Shown: positions 40,704 through 48,190, counted from the stretch's first letter. The stretch: DNA of 64,000 nucleotides from Candidatus Iainarchaeum sp. (GCA_030649735.1 JAUSFL010000008.1:85141-149140); one strand, 5' to 3'. Notes: generated by a model from the sequence alone, not told the origin. A program made the numbers and translations.

Positions 40704-41717
40704 TTAATTTGGGAAGAATTCTCCGGGCATAACTATTCCTTTAGCTACTTGGATTTCATCAACTGCTCCATTAATTGATGGTACTACGTCGCATCCATAA
40801 CCGCTTGCTAAAAACTTCATTGAATTGTTTCCGCTAGTTCCGCCCAAGGGAGCGACAATACTTTCTTGGCTTACTCCATTTTGAAAGATTTCCCAAGTAT
40901 TTGAAGACTTAGTGAATTGAATTGTTAATTGAGTCCAAACATCTAAATCTGGTCTATTCCAAGTAATTGATGTAGAATCATTATCATTAACATAAAATTT
41001 CAGTTTGGCTGTATCGGCTGGTATTTTAATGTAAGCTCCATAATAGCCTGCGCCGCATTTAAAATCTCCAAATAAGTAAGTTTCTGACGTTGCATTGTGA
41101 AGTTTAAACCAGAAATTAATTGTAAAATCATCTGATTTTAAAGTGTCAAATCCTACTGGCGCACTAACGTAATAGCCAGAGCCTGCATTGTCATAACTTC
41201 CGTTGTATATTCCATTAGGATTCCATCCAGCTGAAGTAGTAACAAGCCCGTCATAAATTGAGGTTCCTTCTTGATTATCTGCAGTAGTTCCTTCTGTTTC
41301 ATTAAGCCCATACCAGTAAATGTAATTTATATTCGCGTCGATATTGGTACTGCAATCCCCGCCTTTCAACTTCAAAGCGCCATTAGCCACTGTAATGCAA
41401 TATGGTTGTCCAGTGACTTTATCAGCAATTGTTAAACCGTTTGCGATTGTAGCATAGCCGCTAACATTCAGGTTACTGATGCTTGCGTTGCCGCTAACGC
41501 TTGAATCTCCACTAACAGTAATCTGGTTTGTTGAAACAGTATTTGGGCTAATGTCTTTGCCGTCTACATTGTAGTCTTGAACGGGTAAGTTTGTTAAGCC
41601 AGAACCGTCACCATAGAATTTATTTGCAAAAACATTTCCGAAAACAGTAATATTGTCAGCAATCAAGTTTTTGAAAAAGTTGAATCCACTCCAGTTTAAA
41701 TCTCTTGTCAAAAAGTG
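40704..41717 (-). pseudogene. 3' part of a transposon-disrupted secreted LamG/concanavalin-like protein
   Basis: FYGDGSGLTNL, DDFTINFWFK, INGAVDEIQV; joins 47128-47281 in frame through the TSD. Confidence 0.8.
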
Positions 41718-41722
41718 GGCTT

Positions 41723-41780
41723 TGCCCAACAAGTCTGCCCATAAACCGACTTAATGGGCAGAATGAGGACTTTATGTGCA
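41723..41780. repeat. Left-end array of four 13-bp repeats
   Basis: 41723-41735 and 41736-41748 (reverse); 41748-41760 and 41768-41780 (forward). Confidence 0.85.
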
Positions 41781-41781
41781 G

Positions 41782-42315
41782 TTAATCATCTACTACTTTT
41801 TTTACTTCTGAATTTATTTTGCTTTTTGTTGATTCTCTGAATTTATCTATCTCAGATTCCCAACTCTTCCAGAAACGCTCATAATCGTCTAATGACTTAT
41901 ATTCTTGCTCTTCAAACTCTGCTTGTTGTTTAGCAAGCTCTTCCCAGTAATCATCAGAATAATGTGGTTCACTTGGGTCTTGGTCTTCTAATTTATGTAA
42001 TTCAATAATTTGATTTTTCAGGTGTTCTTTAATGATTTGAGGAATATATTGCCCATTAACTGAATTAAGAAAACTATTTAATTCAGTCTCAAAACGCCGT
42101 AATCCATCATTATTTAATGTGGCAAAAATATTTTCTAATTCTTGCAGTGCTTGTTTTCTATCCGCATAAGTTATTTGAAGCCTAACATTCCTTTCAGATT
42201 GGTTTAATGCCTTTTTATTTAAATAATAAGAGAATAGTAAAGATAACAAGGCGATGAAAAGACCAGAAATTATGCTAAATATGCTTATCCAATTTTCAGG
42301 TGTGAACTCTACCAT
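41782..42315 (-). CDS. Transposon cargo: single-TM acidic helical protein
   Basis: N-terminal TM followed by a coiled-coil-like region; start probably ATG 42315. Confidence 0.7.
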   Translation of the reverse strand: MVEFTPENWISIFSIISGLFIALLSLLFSYYLNKKALNQSERNVRLQITYADRKQALQELENIFATLNNDGLRRFETELNSFLNSVNGQYIPQIIKEHLKNQIIELHKLEDQDPSEPHYSDDYWEELAKQQAEFEEQEYKSLDDYERFWKSWESEIDKFRESTKSKINSEVKKVVDD

Positions 42316-42347
42316 ACTTACTTTTTGTGTGGTATTATTTAAAAGCC

Positions 42348-43529
42348 TCAACTTCTGAAATCCAAGCTAATGCCTAATTCATTAACTTCGTGAATCAGGC
42401 AGACTATGTTGTAGCATAGGACTTTGAGTAATAGCTCGTTTTTCTGGGCTATTGGCTTTCTGCTTTTCAGGCAATCATTGAACTTTGCTTTTAGTGAGTA
42501 AAAGCTTGTTTCAATGTTTGACCTTTTGTGATAGAATTGTCCAAATTCTTCCTTGTTGAATTGGAAGTAGTGGAACATTTTTTTCCAAGTTTGGCTTCCT
42601 TTAGAGTTTCCGCTTGCGTTGCTTCTGAATGGAATGTATGCTTTACCGCCTAATTCTTTGACAGTATCATAATTTGCTCTTGAACTGTAAGCTTTGTCTG
42701 CGCTTACTTCTTGCAGGCTAAATCCGTTGTCTGCGGTTTGTTGGATTAACGGAGCAAAATAAAGACTGTCGCCAGAGTTGTTTTCTGAAACTTGACAGGA
42801 TGTTATAGTGTTGGTTTTTGTTCCACAGACTGCATGAAGCTTAACCCATTGATGCGCTTTTTTAGTGTCATGCTTTTCTTTGCAGTAGTCGTTGAATTTT
42901 GTAGTGCGAAAGCCAGTGCTATCTACTGCAAAACTGGTTTCAACGCTTTTTAATGGAGCAGAACTTTCTGCAATCAAGCTTTCAAGCAAGGGCGTGAGTT
43001 CTGGCTCGTTAAAGTATTTGATTATAGTATTGTAGTGGTGGGTTTTGCTGATTAAGCCTTTTTCAAAAGCTTCCTTAATGTCAGTGTTAGCTCTCCGTGT
43101 GGAAAATTGAGTATAAACCTTCAAAGCGCAGCAGAAAGCCATTTCTCCAATGTTGGCTTTAGGTCTGCCAAAATTCGCTTCTTGCTCCGTATTTGTTAAG
43201 TCTTTCAAGAGCTTCAAAAATTGTTCTTTCTCTGAAGTTTGGCTTTTGTTGTAGGCAGACCATGCTTGAGGGTATGTCAATCGCTTGTTTTCCACTTTAA
43301 CCGAACCGTCCCTTTGTGTCGTAATCTTTTGCAGATAGTATTGGACTGCGAAAGCGTGCTTGCACTTATCAGTTGAACCTTTCTGGCAATCTGGACAAGT
43401 GCAAACGCCTTGCTTGTCCACAAAGTAAAATCTCTCGCTGTTTTGGGATTGAACCGCATAACCATCATCCATTTTCTTTATTGTTCTCGTTTGAGCAATT
43501 ACTCGCCCTTTCTGTTCTCGCAAATCCAT
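42348..43529 (-). CDS. SWIM Zn-finger + DDE transposase (IS4/IS5-like)
   Basis: CTCPD...CKH; AVDSTGF, WVKLH, SADKAYSS, YHKRSNIETSFYSLK. Confidence 0.9.
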   Translation of the reverse strand: MDLREQKGRVIAQTRTIKKMDDGYAVQSQNSERFYFVDKQGVCTCPDCQKGSTDKCKHAFAVQYYLQKITTQRDGSVKVENKRLTYPQAWSAYNKSQTSEKEQFLKLLKDLTNTEQEANFGRPKANIGEMAFCCALKVYTQFSTRRANTDIKEAFEKGLISKTHHYNTIIKYFNEPELTPLLESLIAESSAPLKSVETSFAVDSTGFRTTKFNDYCKEKHDTKKAHQWVKLHAVCGTKTNTITSCQVSENNSGDSLYFAPLIQQTADNGFSLQEVSADKAYSSRANYDTVKELGGKAYIPFRSNASGNSKGSQTWKKMFHYFQFNKEEFGQFYHKRSNIETSFYSLKAKFNDCLKSRKPIAQKNELLLKVLCYNIVCLIHEVNELGISLDFRS

Positions 43530-43558
43530 ACAACCACCCACCAAACCATTCAAAGTAT

Positions 43559-43628
43559 TATAGTATTACATAATACTATAAAGCAATAGTCTTTTAAATA
43601 CTACTGTAATTCTATACTACTGTAATAC
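43559..43628. promoter_or_regulatory. Divergent promoter region with candidate operators
   Basis: Palindrome TATAGTATTA-CA-TAATACTATA and tandem TACTACTGTAAT x2 between the transposase and RHH genes. Confidence 0.6.
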
Positions 43629-43629
43629 T

Positions 43630-43776
43630 ATGAAGCGTAAAACAACCAGTATTAAAGTAGACCCAGAATTCTGGAAACAAGTCAAGTCATATACTGCACT
43701 TAAAGGAATTGACATAAGCGACCTGCTTGAAGACTTGTTGAAAAAAGAGTTAGAAAAGGAGAAAAAAAAGCAATAA
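43630..43776 (+). CDS. Ribbon-helix-helix (CopG-like) regulator, 48 aa
   Basis: MKRKTTSIKVDPEFWKQVKSYTALKGIDISDLLEDLL; below the ORF-track length cutoff. Confidence 0.8.
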   Translation: MKRKTTSIKVDPEFWKQVKSYTALKGIDISDLLEDLLKKELEKEKKKQ

Positions 43777-43837
43777 CGAGCGGAAATGTCGCATAACACA
43801 TGTTTTAAAACCCAAAAAATTGATTTTGAGTGAAAAA

Positions 43838-45730
43838 ATGCCCAGAGCAAGAAATTCAGAAGTTGATGCTTATGCCTTCATAAAAGAACACTTGGCAATA
43901 CATGGGTGGGTTGTAAAGAATCCAAATAGAACAATGAATGGGCAAGTTTATACTCAAAACGAGTGTTTGGATAATCCCGAGATTGCTCGCTGCTTAGTGC
44001 GAGATAGACCAGAAAATATAGTCAAATTATCTGAAACTGAATATTATGTCATTGAGGCAAAAAGAAACAAAGAACAAATAACTCAAGCATTAACTGAAGC
44101 TGAAGATTACGCAAAAGCAGTAAATACAAGTAGGGCAATAAAAGCAAAAGTTATTTCTGGCGTAGCTGGTAATTCAACAGATGGTTTCTTAGTAAAAAGC
44201 AAATATTTTAAGAACGGCAGATTTAATCCAATTAAAATTAATGGTAAAGAAATTACAAGTTTTGTTTCTCCAGCAATAGCTAAATTACTATTAGAAAATG
44301 ATTCTAGTGAAATAGCCGACTTGCCAGTTGATGAGGTAGTATTTCTAAAGTCTGCTGAAGACATAAACAAAATATTGCATTTGGGGGCAATTAATAAAAA
44401 TTATCGTGCAAGAGTTATGGCTGCATTACTCTTAGCATTAATTGATGACACCCGTCCAAATGTAGATGCTTCCCCGAGAGTTTTAATAAATGAAATAAAT
44501 TCACGAGCCGAAAACATACTAATTAGGAATGGAAAGCCAGAATTTTTTGATTGCATAAAAATAGCACTTCCACCAAGCCAAGACAACCACATAAAATTCA
44601 AAAACTCACTAGTCCAAACAATTCAAGAGTTAGAAAATTTAAACATTCGCTCCGCAATGAATTCTGGAACAGATGTTCTTGGAAAGTTCTATGAAGTATT
44701 TCTAAAATACGGAAACGGAGCAAAAGAAATAGGAATAGTCCTCACACCAAGACATATCACTAGGTTCGCAGCAGACATATTTAACATAAAAAGTAGCGAC
44801 ATAGTTTTAGACCCTGCTTGTGGAACTGGCGGATTTTTGGTCGCTGCTTTTGACCAAGCTAAAAAAACAGCAACTCAATCAGAATTAGATTGGTTCAAAA
44901 ATAATGGATTATATGGGGTTGAACAAGAGCCTGAAGTTGCAGCATTGGCAATAGTAAACATGATTTTTAGAGGGGATGGAAAAAATAACATTATTGAAGG
45001 AAACTGTTTCCAAAAAACTTTGATAGCAAGAAATTTAAGTGGTAGATTAAGTGCAAAGTTTTACAATAATCCCGAACTTCCAGAAGTAAGAACTTCTGCT
45101 GCAACCAAAATTTTAATGAATCCACCATTTGCTCTTAAAAAAAGCGATGAAAAAGAGTACAAGTTTGTTCAACATGCATTAGACCAAATGCAAAATAATG
45201 GCTTACTTTTTTGTATTCTTCCCATTTCCACAATGGTAATTAGTGGGGAAGAAAAAAATTGGCGTTTGAATAAACTTCTACAAGAAAATACAATAATTTC
45301 AGTAATTTCTTTCCCACCAGAATTATTTTATCCGATAGGAGTTTATACATTAGGAATAATAATAAAAAAGGGGAATCCACACCCACCGAGCCAAAATGTT
45401 CTGTGGTTAAGAATAATGAAAGATGGATTTGTAAAGAAAAAAGGCAAAAGAGTTTTATCTGATTCAGAATCAAATGATTTTGTTAAATATAATAAGTTAA
45501 TTAAAGAATTTATTGCAAACCAAAATATAGAAGTAAAAACAATTCCAAGAGAATGTAAGGCAACACCAATAAATTTTGAAAGTGAAACTTTTGAGTTAGT
45601 TCCTGAAGTCTATATTGATGATGAAAAATTATCTTGCAGAAAGTTTGAGAAAGAATTAGAAGTGCGTTTAAGAGATTACCTCGCATATTTAATGAGAATT
45701 GATGCTGGTGAATTGAATGAAAATAATTGA
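43838..45730 (+). CDS. Fused restriction endonuclease / N6-adenine methyltransferase (Type IIB/IIG, BcgIA-like)
   Basis: PE...IEAKR nuclease-like motif; LTPRHI, VLDPACGTGGFL, MNPPF. Confidence 0.88.
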   Translation: MPRARNSEVDAYAFIKEHLAIHGWVVKNPNRTMNGQVYTQNECLDNPEIARCLVRDRPENIVKLSETEYYVIEAKRNKEQITQALTEAEDYAKAVNTSRAIKAKVISGVAGNSTDGFLVKSKYFKNGRFNPIKINGKEITSFVSPAIAKLLLENDSSEIADLPVDEVVFLKSAEDINKILHLGAINKNYRARVMAALLLALIDDTRPNVDASPRVLINEINSRAENILIRNGKPEFFDCIKIALPPSQDNHIKFKNSLVQTIQELENLNIRSAMNSGTDVLGKFYEVFLKYGNGAKEIGIVLTPRHITRFAADIFNIKSSDIVLDPACGTGGFLVAAFDQAKKTATQSELDWFKNNGLYGVEQEPEVAALAIVNMIFRGDGKNNIIEGNCFQKTLIARNLSGRLSAKFYNNPELPEVRTSAATKILMNPPFALKKSDEKEYKFVQHALDQMQNNGLLFCILPISTMVISGEEKNWRLNKLLQENTIISVISFPPELFYPIGVYTLGIIIKKGNPHPPSQNVLWLRIMKDGFVKKKGKRVLSDSESNDFVKYNKLIKEFIANQNIEVKTIPRECKATPINFESETFELVPEVYIDDEKLSCRKFEKELEVRLRDYLAYLMRIDAGELNENN

Positions 45731-46181
45731 CAAATTTAATATAGAGAAGGCAAAATCAAAGGCATTTGGAAATCACAAAATAGGAAACATTCCTTTTATT
45801 TCAAATGGTTTTGACAATAATGGTTTTGTAGGCTTTGTTAAACCACTCCAAAGTGAAAGAATATTTAATCAAGATGGAATTTGCATATCTGCTTTTTGCG
45901 AGGCAACAGTACAAAAAGCCCCATTTTTACCAAGAGGAAACGGTGGCAGTGGATTAACTGTATTAATTCCAAAAGAGAAAATGAATCAAGAGCAATTACA
46001 CGTTTATGCGGGTTTAATAAATACTCAAAGATGGAGATTTTCCTTTGGAAGAATGGTAATATCAGATAGATTATCTGAATTAGACCTTCCAAATATACCG
46101 AGAGAATTTGAGAATAATACTGTAAAGAAAATAGTAAATAAAATACTAAATTCCGCAATGAAACAAATAACTAAAATATAA
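45717..46181 (+). CDS. Half-size specificity (S) subunit with a single TRD
   Basis: GNIPFISNGFDNNGFVG...RWRFSFGR...LDLP; overlaps the R-M gene. Confidence 0.75.
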   Translation: MKIIDKFNIEKAKSKAFGNHKIGNIPFISNGFDNNGFVGFVKPLQSERIFNQDGICISAFCEATVQKAPFLPRGNGGSGLTVLIPKEKMNQEQLHVYAGLINTQRWRFSFGRMVISDRLSELDLPNIPREFENNTVKKIVNKILNSAMKQITKI

Positions 46182-46199
46182 CTAATTTTGAGAGAAATT

Positions 46200-46583
46200 A
46201 TGTTTTGGCTTGTTAATCATTCTTGGGAGTCTTTTAAGAGAACTCAAGAATATTGCGGTTTTATTTCTGAAAATGAGCGAAACAAAATAGCAATCGGCGA
46301 TAGCGTTGTTTATTTTGGTCAGGGCTTGGTTTTTGGATTGTTTGAAGCTATAAGCTTGCCAGAGAATGAGTTTAAAGGCTGGCAGAAACAGTATCCTTTT
46401 CAAGTCAAGCTAAAACCAATTTTACTGGCTAAAGGCGGTTTGAAAGCCAAAGTTTTAGAAAGTAAGATTTTATTGCAAAAAAGCGCAGGCAGTTCAGGAA
46501 ACCTTATTGAACTCTCCGAAAGCGAGTTCAACCAAATAACGCAAGCAATAGAAACAGGACGAAAAGAGCTGGTGTTTGAATGA
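46200..46583 (+). CDS. EVE/PUA-like domain protein
   Basis: MFWLV, KIAIGDSVVYF, VFGLFEA, W...YPFQVKLKP, ELSESEFNQI. Confidence 0.7.
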   Translation: MFWLVNHSWESFKRTQEYCGFISENERNKIAIGDSVVYFGQGLVFGLFEAISLPENEFKGWQKQYPFQVKLKPILLAKGGLKAKVLESKILLQKSAGSSGNLIELSESEFNQITQAIETGRKELVFE

Positions 46584-47074
46584 ATGATTTTATGCGGCAC
46601 AAATCTATTTATGAAAAAAAAGTTAGATTTATTGATGATTTTGTAGATAAATATATTAGAATCAGGCATAGCAAAAATTTTCCACATACAGCAATAGGTA
46701 TTGTAATAAAATTGCTTTTTCCAAAGTCATACAAAATTAACAAAGGGTGGTATAAAACTGCTTTTTATATCTCATCAAGAAAAAAAGATTTAGTGATAAA
46801 AATAGGCAGAACAAAAAACTTGAAACAAGATTGGAAAGCTTACCAAAAATTCCCTAAAGGAATTAGAAATAAATATTTCGCCAAAATTTATTGGCACTCT
46901 AAATATTGCTTACTTCAAAAATGGGGTAAAGCCGCAAAAATTAGCAATAAAGACCCCCGAATAATTAAATTAAAGGAAAAAGCGAGCTATTATGGCTTAA
47001 ATGATATAAAACCCGCAAATACGGCTTTCTTTGATGGAAAATTAAAAATTATAGACGCAAGCATAAAAAAATGA
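46580..47074 (+). CDS. Minimal protein-kinase-like protein
   Basis: KGWYKTAF (Gly-loop-like), LVIKIG (beta3 Lys), DIKPAN (catalytic loop), KIID. Confidence 0.7.
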   Translation: MNDFMRHKSIYEKKVRFIDDFVDKYIRIRHSKNFPHTAIGIVIKLLFPKSYKINKGWYKTAFYISSRKKDLVIKIGRTKNLKQDWKAYQKFPKGIRNKYFAKIYWHSKYCLLQKWGKAAKISNKDPRIIKLKEKASYYGLNDIKPANTAFFDGKLKIIDASIKK

Positions 47075-47123
47075 CTTTATGGGCAGACTTCTGACTTTGT
47101 GGGCAAAAACGACTTAATAGGCA
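47073..47123. repeat. Right-end array of three 13-bp direct repeats
   Basis: GACTTTATGGGCA 47073, GACTTTGTGGGCA 47093, GACTTAATAGGCA 47111. Confidence 0.88.
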
Positions 47124-47127
47124 AAGC

Positions 47128-47281
47128 TCAAAAAGTGTTCTCTTGCTTCTTGATTTGTATCGAGTGTTTCATCTATTACAACCGGCTTTTCTGGCTTGCC
47201 ACCTGCAGCAGCAATGACTGAAACAGACAAAACGAAAAGACTAAAGATTATTGCTAATATAACTAAAATTCTCCCATTCAA
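47128..47281 (-). pseudogene. 5' part (signal peptide) of the disrupted LamG-like gene
   Basis: TTG start, MNGRILVILAIIFSLFVLSVSVIAAAGG...EAREHFL, then the TSD. Confidence 0.8.
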
Positions 47282-47400
47282 AAAACATCCCCTCGCAAAT
47301 TAGTTGATAACTTCAAAGGGAGAGAAAACTCATTTAAACTCGAAACTGAGCTTTAAAAGCAAGTTCACTAAAAGTGGGGCACAGTACTAAAAGTGTGAAG

Positions 47401-47475
47401 TGCCCTCGTCGGGATTTGGACCCGAGTTTTCGCCGTGAGAGGGCGAAGTCCTTGACCGGGCTAGACTACGAGGGC
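47401..47475 (-). tRNA. tRNA-Glu(CTC)
   Basis: GCCCTCG/CGAGGGC-A; TCGCC-CT CTC AC-GGCGA; T-loop TCCAAAT. Confidence 0.93.
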
Positions 47476-47539
47476 GGCTGCAACAATTCTTGTTGGAACG
47501 TATTTTATTGCTTTTGGGCTTTCAAAGCTTCTGGTTGCA

Positions 47540-48190
47540 TTGATTAAGGCAGTGATTTTTGACTTGGATGGAACTTTAGTGGACACTAATGGAATCCACC
47601 TTGAGAATTTCCGCAAGGACTTTCCAAAGCAATTTGGCTTTCGCCCGAAGGATTCTGAAGTCTTGCCGTTGTTCGGAAAAAGCGCCGTTGAAATCGCGCA
47701 AATCCTTGCGAGAAAGCGCGGCATCAAATTGGATGCTAAAAAGCTTGTGGAGTTCGCGCGCTTGAAAGAAAGCCTTTTTGTAAAGTCAGCCAAGGGAAAG
47801 CACTTTCTCTCAAAAGCAAATTTTTTGTTCTTGAAAAAATTGAAGGCCAGAGGATTGAAGATTGCGATTGCTTCAGGCAGTTCGAGAAAAATGCTTAATG
47901 CTTCCTTGAAGACTTTTGAAAGGAAATTGTTTGACTGCATTGTGTGCGCTGATGATGTTTTGCATTCAAAGCCTAATCCTTTAATGATTTTTAAGGCCTT
48001 GAAATGCCTGCGCGTGAAAAAAGGCAATGCTGTTTTTGTTGGCGATGGATTTTTGGACGCGAAGACAGCAAAGAACGCTAATCTGCGGTTTGTTGCAGTG
48101 CTTTCTGGAATAACTTCAAGAAAGCAGTTTGAAAAATTCAAGCCATTGCTTATTGTGAAAAAAGCCCGGGATTTGGGAAAAGTTTTATAA
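47540..48190 (+). CDS. HAD-superfamily phosphatase
   Basis: FDLDGTLVD, SKPNP, FVGD. Confidence 0.92.
   Translation: MIKAVIFDLDGTLVDTNGIHLENFRKDFPKQFGFRPKDSEVLPLFGKSAVEIAQILARKRGIKLDAKKLVEFARLKESLFVKSAKGKHFLSKANFLFLKKLKARGLKIAIASGSSRKMLNASLKTFERKLFDCIVCADDVLHSKPNPLMIFKALKCLRVKKGNAVFVGDGFLDAKTAKNANLRFVAVLSGITSRKQFEKFKPLLIVKKARDLGKVL

Follow-up and report, generated by a model that had tools for sequence, protein, structure and literature searches.

What kind of mobile unit has split a gene for a secreted LamG/concanavalin-like protein in Candidatus Iainarchaeum sp., a tiny groundwater archaeon? We addressed this question in a 64,000-nt stretch of its genome (GCA_030649735.1, JAUSFL010000008.1:85141-149140; hereafter the window), where the gene is interrupted by DNA with a GC content of 34.0%, against 42.4 +/- 1.0% in 96 equal-sized tracts of the surrounding DNA. 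The original prediction was of a cargo transposon with an internal SWIM-DDE transposase and repeats arrayed at its ends. Our analysis indicates that the region is very probably an intact 5411-bp DDE transposon belonging to a large, mostly archaeal lineage that descended from an IS903-type insertion sequence (IS) of the IS5 family. The element and the sequences it interrupts, delimited by terminal inverted repeats (TIRs), a target-site duplication (TSD), a step in depth and a contig join, are as follows.

41718..47128, minus strand (that of the transposase): transposon, 5411 bp, placed by TIRs, TSD, depth step and contig join
41709..41717, no strand: left TSD copy, 9 bp, CAAAAAGTG, a direct repeat; 9 bp is the rule in the family
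47129..47137, no strand: right TSD copy, 9 bp, a direct repeat
40704..41717, minus strand: 3' part of the host gene (secreted LamG/concanavalin-like protein; Pfam Laminin_G_3, 2e-12)
47129..47281, minus strand: 5' part of the host gene (signal/transmembrane segment), from open reading frame (ORF) calling and the joined frame

A TSD of 10 bp, or else 9 bp, had been proposed. The direct repeat read from the window, TCAAAAAGTG at 41708-41717 and 47128-47137, is indeed perfect over 10 nt, but the duplication itself is the 9-bp CAAAAAGTG. Base 47128 is the first base of the element's right end, which reads AGCTTTG, and we place it inside the element because a perfect 9-mer adjoins the G/A-GCTTTG end in 36 of 39 relatives. 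These relatives came from 103 archaeal and metagenomic loci, 23 from a scan of a genome collection and 80 from a metagenome scan. A relative was delimited where the transposase gene was flanked on both sides by a G/A-GCTTTG end, with the TIRs matching at 12 or more of 18 positions and the TSD at 7 or more of 9. Several ends escaped a generic inverted-repeat search seeded with 10 nt, and a GGCTTTG-anchored search combined with the TSD test was therefore used. Complete elements were delimited in 39 of the 103 loci, the duplication being perfect in 36 of them. Removal of identical and near-identical copies and addition of the window's element gave a set of 33 non-redundant elements of 2479-7290 bp (median 3722).

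The imperfect TIRs of the earlier claim are present, GGCTTTGCCCAACAAGTC at the left and AGCTTTGCCTATTAAGTC, read inward, at the right. When the element and one repeat copy were excised in silico, the minus-strand ORFs at 47281-47114 and 41732-40704 fused into a frame of 385 codons that reads ...EAREHFLTRDLNW... and encodes a signal-like N-terminus followed by a Laminin_G_3 domain (2e-12); excision thus restores the host frame, as had been predicted. A single pair of ends and a single TSD enclose seven genes, and the ORF and domain calls place the transposase in the interior with genes on both sides of it.

The state of the insertion in the population was read from contigs, not raw reads, of run X1, probably the source sample, mapped to the window. 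The flanks had depths of 15.2 (40892-41717) and 16.9 (47128-47700), whereas the element contig (41718-47073) had a depth of 7.76, about half that of the flanks; a 60-nt unitig spanning the left junction had a depth of 9.5. The 16.9-deep contig of the right flank runs on for 20 letters into 41688-41707, and this joint, from 41707 to 47128 with 10 ambiguous letters, skips 5420 bp, which is the element plus one TSD copy, that is, an empty site with a single copy of the repeat. The two-fold step in depth at the exact boundaries is evidence independent of the joint. The insertion is polymorphic, and we read it as carried by roughly half of the sampled population; this polymorphism suggests that it is recent. 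The empty-site joint and the half depth are in keeping with the recent activity suggested earlier. Runs X2 and X3 of the same study contained next to none of the stretch and so provided no independent sample. About 120 bp upstream of the interrupted LamG gene lies a tRNA-Glu(CUC) gene (window 47400-47475, minus strand), at which contigs from other organisms stack to a depth of 40 versus about 16.

A depth half that of the flanks can also occur in chimeric bins, and the true mobile unit might then be a compact transposase-only IS beside a separate island, or the region an assembly chimera of two strains. We give this reading almost no credence: within the element, the transposase has no IS903-like end beside it, the duplication encloses all 5.4 kb, what the alternative contig join drops is precisely the element and one TSD copy, and the junction unitig covers the boundary between flank and element. 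Furthermore, no transposase-only compact IS was found among the 39 delimited relatives, the shortest of which is 2479 bp, and the same architecture with variable cargo recurs in the 33 non-redundant elements, which supports the reading of the region as one unit transposon rather than a compact IS.

The repeats at the two ends are the following, with end positions counted inward from each terminus and occupancy given among the 33 non-redundant elements.

41718..41735, plus strand: TIR of the transposase-downstream end, GGCTT followed by the 13-mer TGCCCAACAAGTC; 13 of 18 bases as in the IS903 inverted repeat (IR) GGCTTTGTTGAATAAATC
41723..41735, minus strand: site D1, the terminal 13-mer, end position 6 (pattern match)
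41736..41748, minus strand: weak partial copy (the 'fourth left copy') in the 12-bp spacer between D1 and D2, with 3 mismatches to GACTTWRTGGGCA by eye
41748..41760, plus strand: site D2, inverted subterminal 13-mer at position 31, palindromic with D1; occupied in 30/33
41768..41780, plus strand: site D3, inverted subterminal 13-mer at position 51; occupied in 20/33
47073..47085, plus strand: site U3, direct subterminal 13-mer at position 44 of the transposase-upstream end; occupied in 20/33
47093..47105, plus strand: site U2, direct subterminal 13-mer at position 24; occupied in 27/33
47111..47128, minus strand: TIR of the transposase-upstream end, AGCTT followed by the 13-mer TGCCTATTAAGTC (pattern match and end alignment)
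47111..47123, plus strand: site U1, the 13-mer of the upstream TIR (pattern match)

In the 64-kb window, GACTTWRTGGGCA had 13 matches with at most 2 mismatches, compared with 4.83 +/- 2.02 in shuffled sequence, where 13 was reached by 1 of 100 shuffles; six of the 13 fall in the two ends. The same-direction copies at the right end start 20 and 18 bp apart, in agreement with the spacing of 18-20 bp given earlier for forward copies. Seven repeats had been counted. Six of them are conserved sites, but the copy at 41736-48 found no support: it was not recovered at up to 3 mismatches to the element's own motif, and a comparable copy exists in 1 of the 33 elements, L009 (loci carry L numbers, L001 being the window's own DNA), where it starts at position 18 rather than 19. 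Because it lies in the D1-D2 spacer and has its counterpart in L009 alone, it is probably not a separate site and we did not count it. In the genome outside the element, we found no other copies of the ends: a search allowing 2 mismatches gave 3 forward and 7 reverse matches, against 2 and 3 for a backwards control, and those other than the two ends and one subterminal copy look like chance.

The window's exact 13-mer was tried as a family marker in 25 loci (L001-L025) and gave two stray hits beyond L001. The motif differs between elements, examples being TGCCCAACAAGTC, TGCATCTAAAGTC, TGTGTAATAAGTA and TGCTATTTAATTC, and the exact search was therefore replaced by one with each element's own terminal motif. 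For this, elements were oriented with the transposase on the plus strand, the motif was taken from positions 6-18 of their own ends, and up to 3 mismatches were allowed. The window has 13-mers at positions 6, 24 and 44 of the transposase-upstream end, all direct, and at position 6 (direct) and positions 31 and 51 (both inverted) of the downstream end. This layout, in which one end has three 13-mers that are all direct and the opposite end has two inverted copies behind the terminal one, is common to the family; all four subterminal sites were occupied together in 16 of 33 elements, against a background inside the elements of 88 hits per 254,402 position-orientations. The subterminal copies also follow the terminal motif of their own element, matching at 97 of 132 positions, whereas the motifs of unrelated members matched at 231 of 2152. 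A fixed geometry combined with a co-varying sequence is hard to explain unless the 13-mers are repeated binding sites of each element's own transposase, as we predict.

Could the subterminal 13-mers instead be regulatory elements, such as operators of the ribbon-helix-helix (RHH) protein encoded in the element, outward promoters or terminators, or else relics of nested or abortive ends? The inverted copies and the terminal copy at the transposase-downstream end form a palindrome capable of a hairpin, which could act on transcripts leaving the transposase operon, and an extra internal left end in L012 indicates that end relics do exist in the family. We nevertheless consider this explanation improbable, since the positions are exact to the base although the transposases are just 41-56% identical to that of the window, since the 13-mers co-vary with their own terminal repeat, and since RHH homologs (E<=1e-3) occur in only four related loci (L095, L096, L012 and L094) while the sites are nearly universal.

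The extra end just mentioned, at 3881-3940 of L012 and likewise in L094, is a second, internal end of the upstream type, GGCTT followed by three direct copies of one 13-mer of slightly different sequence (TGTTAAATAAGT-). It lies 733 bp inward from the outer left end of the element, a Nanoarchaeia member of 7.3 kb, and resembles tandem ends; if these are real, the use of alternative ends would be one route of cargo capture.

The protein that would act on these ends is encoded in the interior of the element.

42348..43529, minus strand: transposase, 393 aa, SWIM-type module and DDE_Tnp_1 domain (Pfam DDE_Tnp_1, 4.4e-29)

Its N-terminal CxCx10CxH motif consists of C43, C45, C56 and H58, and its catalytic domain contains D203, D278 and E340, with Y333-x2-R336-x3-E340-x6-K347 around the last. 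When aligned, 28 family transposases, 41-56% identical to the window's, show no variation at the four residues of the module or at D203, D278, E340, Y333, R336 and K347. The best NCBIfam model was that of the IS5 family, NF033579 (139.1 bits, cut-off 140), followed at a distance by NF033581 (33 bits, cut-off 140). A large protein collection contains 5594 homologs at E<=0.001; among the 120 listed, a precomputed match to the Pfam SWIM domain (PF04434) was present in 8, and the homologs are named only 'transposase'. A tblastn search of 72,556 plasmids identified IS903 and IS903B as the nearest annotated relatives (23-26% identity, 2e-10 to 6e-9) together with ISRhba5 (26% identity, about 1e-16), and these alignments begin at about residue 50-100 of the window's transposase. 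We read IS903 from a Klebsiella plasmid (L026) as 1057 bp with one gene and the simple IR GGCTTTGTTGAATAAATC, which the window's IR matches at 13 of 18 positions. The catalytic core and the end chemistry, that is, the TIR and the 9-bp TSD, are judged from these sequence comparisons to be those of the IS903 group of the IS5 family, and by the same comparisons IS903 as read here shares neither the first ~90 residues nor the size nor the end arrays. Whether the element matches a defined family, the point on which the original prediction would turn, therefore has a divided answer: the DDE domain, the 18-bp TIR and the 9-bp TSD match the IS903 group, but the SWIM module, the arrayed sites and the cargo do not.

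An AlphaFold (AF2) model built from the alignment (mean predicted local distance difference test score, pLDDT, 77.9) places ahead of an RNase-H-type core a small N-terminal domain rich in beta structure, in which CxH marks the start of a helix. Foldseek with the whole model returned DDE transposases alone, at low TM-scores (best ISCth4, E 2.9e-5, TMq 0.33; Tn5, E 0.014), and nothing specific to the N-terminal module. In IS903, the inner part of the IR is reportedly the part bound by the transposase (Derbyshire and Grindley). We infer from the sequences that the N-terminal module may read the 13-mers. The genome contains a second family transposase, 43% identical to the first, on contig C42 of G000 (L002), whose 1137 bp contain hardly anything but the gene; a collapsed or multi-copy element may have broken the assembly here.

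The remaining genes of the element and its control region are listed here.

41782..42315, minus strand: protein of 177 aa, or 189 aa if begun at an upstream TTG, with a transmembrane helix at its N-terminus and an acidic, helical tail, starting 33 nt past the transposase stop
43554..43629, no strand: divergent control region between transposase and RHH genes, 76 bp, with a palindrome, direct repeats and TATA-like boxes for both genes
43630..43776, plus strand: candidate RHH protein, 48 aa (Pfam RHH_4, 4.3e-4, and CcdA, 1.2e-3, both below curated cut-offs)
43838..45730, plus strand: fused restriction-modification (R-M) protein, 630 aa, nuclease plus gamma-type N6-adenine methyltransferase (Pfam N6_Mtase, 5.8e-34)
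45717..46181, plus strand: candidate half-size S subunit, 154 aa, one target-recognition domain, overlapping the R-M gene by 14 nt
46200..46583, plus strand: EVE/PUA-like protein, 127 aa (131 aa from an upstream TTG), from a family profile against solved EVE proteins
46580..47074, plus strand: possible minimal protein-kinase-fold protein, 164 aa, overlapping the EVE gene by 4 nt

The 177-aa protein had no match in Pfam or PADLOC, no homolog in the related loci and no Atlas family. The control region contains a 10+10 palindrome, TATAGTATTA..TAATACTATA (43559-43580), and two 13-nt direct repeats, ATACTACTGTAAT (43598-43610 and 43614-43626), and we infer from this arrangement that it may be an operator. 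A scan for sigma-70 promoters and terminators was at chance (22 sites versus 19.2 +/- 4.0), its model not being applicable to an archaeon. Homologs of the RHH protein lie divergently just upstream of the transposase in L095/L096 (58% identity) and L012/L094 (42%), which are elements with other cargo; the RHH gene thus belongs with the transposition module, and its product is, judging by this gene order, a probable regulator tied to the transposase.

The four genes for the 630-, 154-, 127- and 164-aa proteins appear to form an operon on the strand opposite to the transposase. The 630-aa protein matches PADLOC REase_MTase_IIG (5.3e-46), and its methylase part resembles HsdM (PDB 2okc, 1.5e-21). 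The 154-aa protein has weak matches to Pfam Methylase_S (0.005) and PADLOC Specificity_II (5.8e-4). It matches both halves of a 329-aa, two-domain S protein in L011, from Methanothrix (5.8e-11 and 3e-7), which itself matches Pfam Methylase_S (4.9e-10), and because each half is matched, we regard it as a half-size S subunit. By the precedent of truncated type I S subunits, it would dimerise to recognise a bipartite, symmetric site. For the 127-aa protein, a profile of 11 family members found the EVE proteins PH1033 (1wmm, 6.6e-5, full length) and MJECL36 (2p5d, 0.0042), whereas the single sequence alone reached just 0.16; Pfam EVE (PF01878) was present in 2 of the 11. This family is tiny, with 20 relatives in 1.8 billion representatives, and a single-sequence AlphaFold model of the protein was uninformative (mean pLDDT 37.5). 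The 164-aa protein gave TM-scores of 0.56-0.72 to Pkinase/RIO1 clusters in an Atlas structure search; its nearest feature clusters are phage hypotheticals, and its match to Pfam TCAD9 is weak (0.0018). A minimal kinase or RIO-like fold is for this protein a lead only, taken from structural models.

Does the cargo serve the host, or mainly the element? The R-M genes could act chiefly by post-segregational killing (addiction), or the nuclease could be dead and the methylase alone active. R-M genes recur in 10 of 32 relatives, and the window's 630-aa protein shares 57% identity with its counterpart in the L011 cargo and 55% with the one in L074, whereas the transposases of these two loci are just 44-46% identical to the window's (44% for L011), which suggests selection on the module within elements. 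Moreover, the homolog in L011 is split by an IS630-like insertion and is thus dispensable to that host. Set against this, the PD-(D/E)xK motif (PE...IEAK) near the N-terminus of the 630-aa protein is intact, and all 7 cargo homologs in the alignment retain it, K75 being invariant; the element, at about half frequency, is neither fixed nor purged; and addiction and defence are compatible with each other. On balance, we regard a mainly selfish or nuclease-dead module as rather unlikely. The insertion in L011 (2846-3981), which has helix-turn-helix (HTH) and DDE_3 ORFs, appears from its sequence to be a transposon inside the cargo of a transposon that inactivates the restriction gene.

Cargo across the family was surveyed in 32 relatives: the 103 ORFs of 70 aa or more other than the transposases were searched with Pfam, and 76 of these with PADLOC, ORFs already assigned by Pfam, fragments and the smallest ORFs being left out of the PADLOC run; PADLOC hits weaker than ~1e-6 (L018 DarG, L061 CARF, L071 PDC-M05A and L078 PDC-M19A) did not count towards defence. 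Of the 32, 10 carried DNA methylase or R-M genes (L003, L011, L012, L038, L039, L047, L070, L076, L084 and L090), among them a complete type II pair in L038 and an MmeI-like enzyme in L090. Strong hits to candidate defence systems were obtained in L009 (PDC-M19 A and B), with further ones in L047 and L090. In L009 (4287-5860), the B and A proteins scored 1.3e-65 and 1.8e-38, the A protein has a DUF488 domain and a gene for a pentapeptide-repeat protein adjoins; this cargo is a possible natural context for the uncharacterised candidate defence system PDC-M19. The idea that the family ferries defence genes thus stands for about a third of the relatives, which carry R-M, methylase or candidate defence genes, the defensive role being deduced from gene families.

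Six elements have transposases that are 89-95% identical, and in five of them the left and right ends are identical too, yet their cargo differs: three have R-M systems unlike one another, one has a set containing a PIN protein and two have sets of unknown genes. Since near-identical transposases carry different cargo, cargo must be swapped much faster than the core diverges. The neighbourhoods of the homologs bear out the earlier expectation of arrayed end repeats, each element with its own motif, around variable cargo. Two contigs of one Micrarchaeota metagenome-assembled genome, L009 and L019, share the identical right end GGCTTTGCTATTTTATCTGC, which means at least 2 copies in that genome. 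Identical elements at identical target sites were found in separate public records (L048/L049/L050, L061/L062, L077/L079, L095/L096, L007/L063 and L012/L094), and because of this recurrence these insertions are stable enough for repeated sampling.

Where the family inserts was also apparent from the relatives. In 15 of 32 sites, the octamer TTTAWATA (at most 1 mismatch) begins precisely at +7 from the duplication, on one side in 8 cases and on the opposite side in 7, compared with 7 hits in total at all 21 other offsets on both sides; a long open frame is interrupted by just 3 of the 32 relatives. These sequences suggest that the family usually inserts six bases from a promoter TATA box. The window's copy departs from this: its insertion point is 55 codons inside a gene, and the nearest TATA-like word, TTTAAACT, is at +9 with two mismatches. 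This landing inside a gene, unlike the habit of the family, suggests that the insertion is recent and has not yet been purged.

Taken together, these data suggest the following mechanism. By analogy with IS903, the element would probably move by cut-and-paste. The 13-mers would be transposase-binding sites read by the extra N-terminal module, three protomers might load at each end, and the asymmetric layout would tell the two ends apart in the synaptic complex, as in Mu and Tn7. The RHH protein would bind the palindrome and direct repeats between the two divergent genes and so control transposase expression. The cargo operon would provide a fused nuclease-methylase with its half-size S subunit, an EVE protein and a minimal kinase, of which the R-M part may be a BcgI-like type IIB/IIG system that should recognise a symmetric bipartite site. 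Carriers would gain restriction of foreign DNA, which would probably stabilise the element too.

Several observations weigh against the reading of the region as an intact, active member of such a lineage. The ends are present in a single copy in this genome, so that no second insertion shows activity there. The short side of the empty-site joint is just 20 letters and was flagged as weak by the tool, and the polymorphism was seen in contigs of one run, probably the source sample, and not in raw reads. The transposase falls 0.9 bit short of the NF033579 cut-off, and Pfam SWIM (PF04434) is sub-threshold on it (E 0.067). Scores were weak for the proteins assigned as S subunit, RHH and kinase. Among the relatives, 64 of the 103 loci were not delimited, mostly on short or truncated contigs, and some of these may be built differently; Pfam and PADLOC recognised no defence gene in 21 of 32.

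According to a 2019 survey, passenger-carrying DNA transposons had not been detected in archaea (PMC6563490), a gap that the present family would close, and SWIM, IS903 and passenger genes all go unmentioned in the main text of a 2026 survey of archaeal IS (PMC13343696). We found no description of a SWIM-DDE, IS903-like cargo family in the full-text literature, a search that did not extend to ISfinder, TnPedia and supplementary tables, and within that scope the family is as little described as had been claimed. As a tentative proposal, of which we remain more doubtful than confident, archaea may harbour a large unnamed class of cargo transposons that combines an IS903-like origin, a zinc-finger module and Mu/Tn7-like three-site arrays, that lands six bases from the B recognition element (BRE)/TATA box, possibly by way of DNA bent or bound by TATA-binding protein (TBP) and transcription factor B (TFB), and that acts as a vehicle for restriction and defence modules in DPANN archaea and methanogens; it would be the first archaeal counterpart of the bacterial unit transposons. 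The element illustrates how a one-gene IS may grow into a cargo transposon with complex, asymmetric ends, and it offers a route by which R-M and other defence genes could pass among tiny symbiotic archaea and methanogens. The landing rule near promoters (15/32) suggests that transposition is tied to the archaeal transcription machinery in a way not yet studied. It could also be worth trying a compact SWIM-DDE transposase, with its defined 13-bp sites and 5-7 kb payload, as a genetic tool in archaea.

Among known systems, the closest is the IS903 group, which ISfinder defines by a 9-bp duplication and GGC ends and whose members are compact, ~1 kb, with a single gene for a transposase of ~300 aa. 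The element shares with IS903 and IS903B the DDE_Tnp_1 transposase with a Y-R-E-K signature, 18-bp ends starting GGCTTTG (13/18 identical) and the 9-bp duplication. In contrast to IS903, with 1057 bp, one gene and simple IRs, it has 5411 bp and seven genes; its transposase, about 24% identical to that of IS903, has an extra SWIM-type N-terminal module of ~90 residues; and it has two additional subterminal copies of the inner IR per end and archaeal hosts. Mu ends have three L or R sites for MuA, and Tn7 ends have three and four TnsB sites. The element resembles both in having several sites per end in an asymmetric layout, here 3 + 3 predicted sites at conserved positions, but Mu and Tn7 use rve/RNase-H transposases of another family, an AAA+ partner (MuB, TnsC) and 5-bp duplications. 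Among the seven proteins, Pfam and NCBIfam found no rve transposase, no AAA+ regulator and no IstA or IstB of the IS21 family, and the duplication is 9 bp. Tn7 cargo includes defence systems, according to the abstract of one study (PMC8649781).

With respect to cargo, a study of bacterial R-M units (Furuta, Abe and Kobayashi 2010, PMC2853133) describes transposon-like units in which R-M genes lie between inverted repeats that are imperfect, flanked by a short duplication of the target; one from Neisseria has a type IIG R-M gene and an S-subunit homolog, as does this element, and no archaeal case survived the selection made in that study. Those units have 8-bp duplications and lack an intact transposase, whereas this element encodes its own. 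The cargo is like BcgI-type (type IIB) and type IIG systems in joining the nuclease to the N6-adenine methylase within a single chain and pairing that chain with a type-I-like S subunit encoded apart, an architecture for which the same study names BcgI and Sau42I (PMC2853133). It differs in that its S protein has one recognition domain (154 aa, with a weak score) and its operon adds an EVE protein and a mini-kinase. Finally, IS with passenger genes are termed transporter IS (tIS) in ISfinder, and the element is like a tIS in that a single IR pair and a single transposase enclose the passengers with no second IS copy. In this family, however, passengers are the rule (33/33 non-redundant elements exceed 2.4 kb) and are combined with arrayed ends. 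We class the element as an IS903-derived unit transposon.

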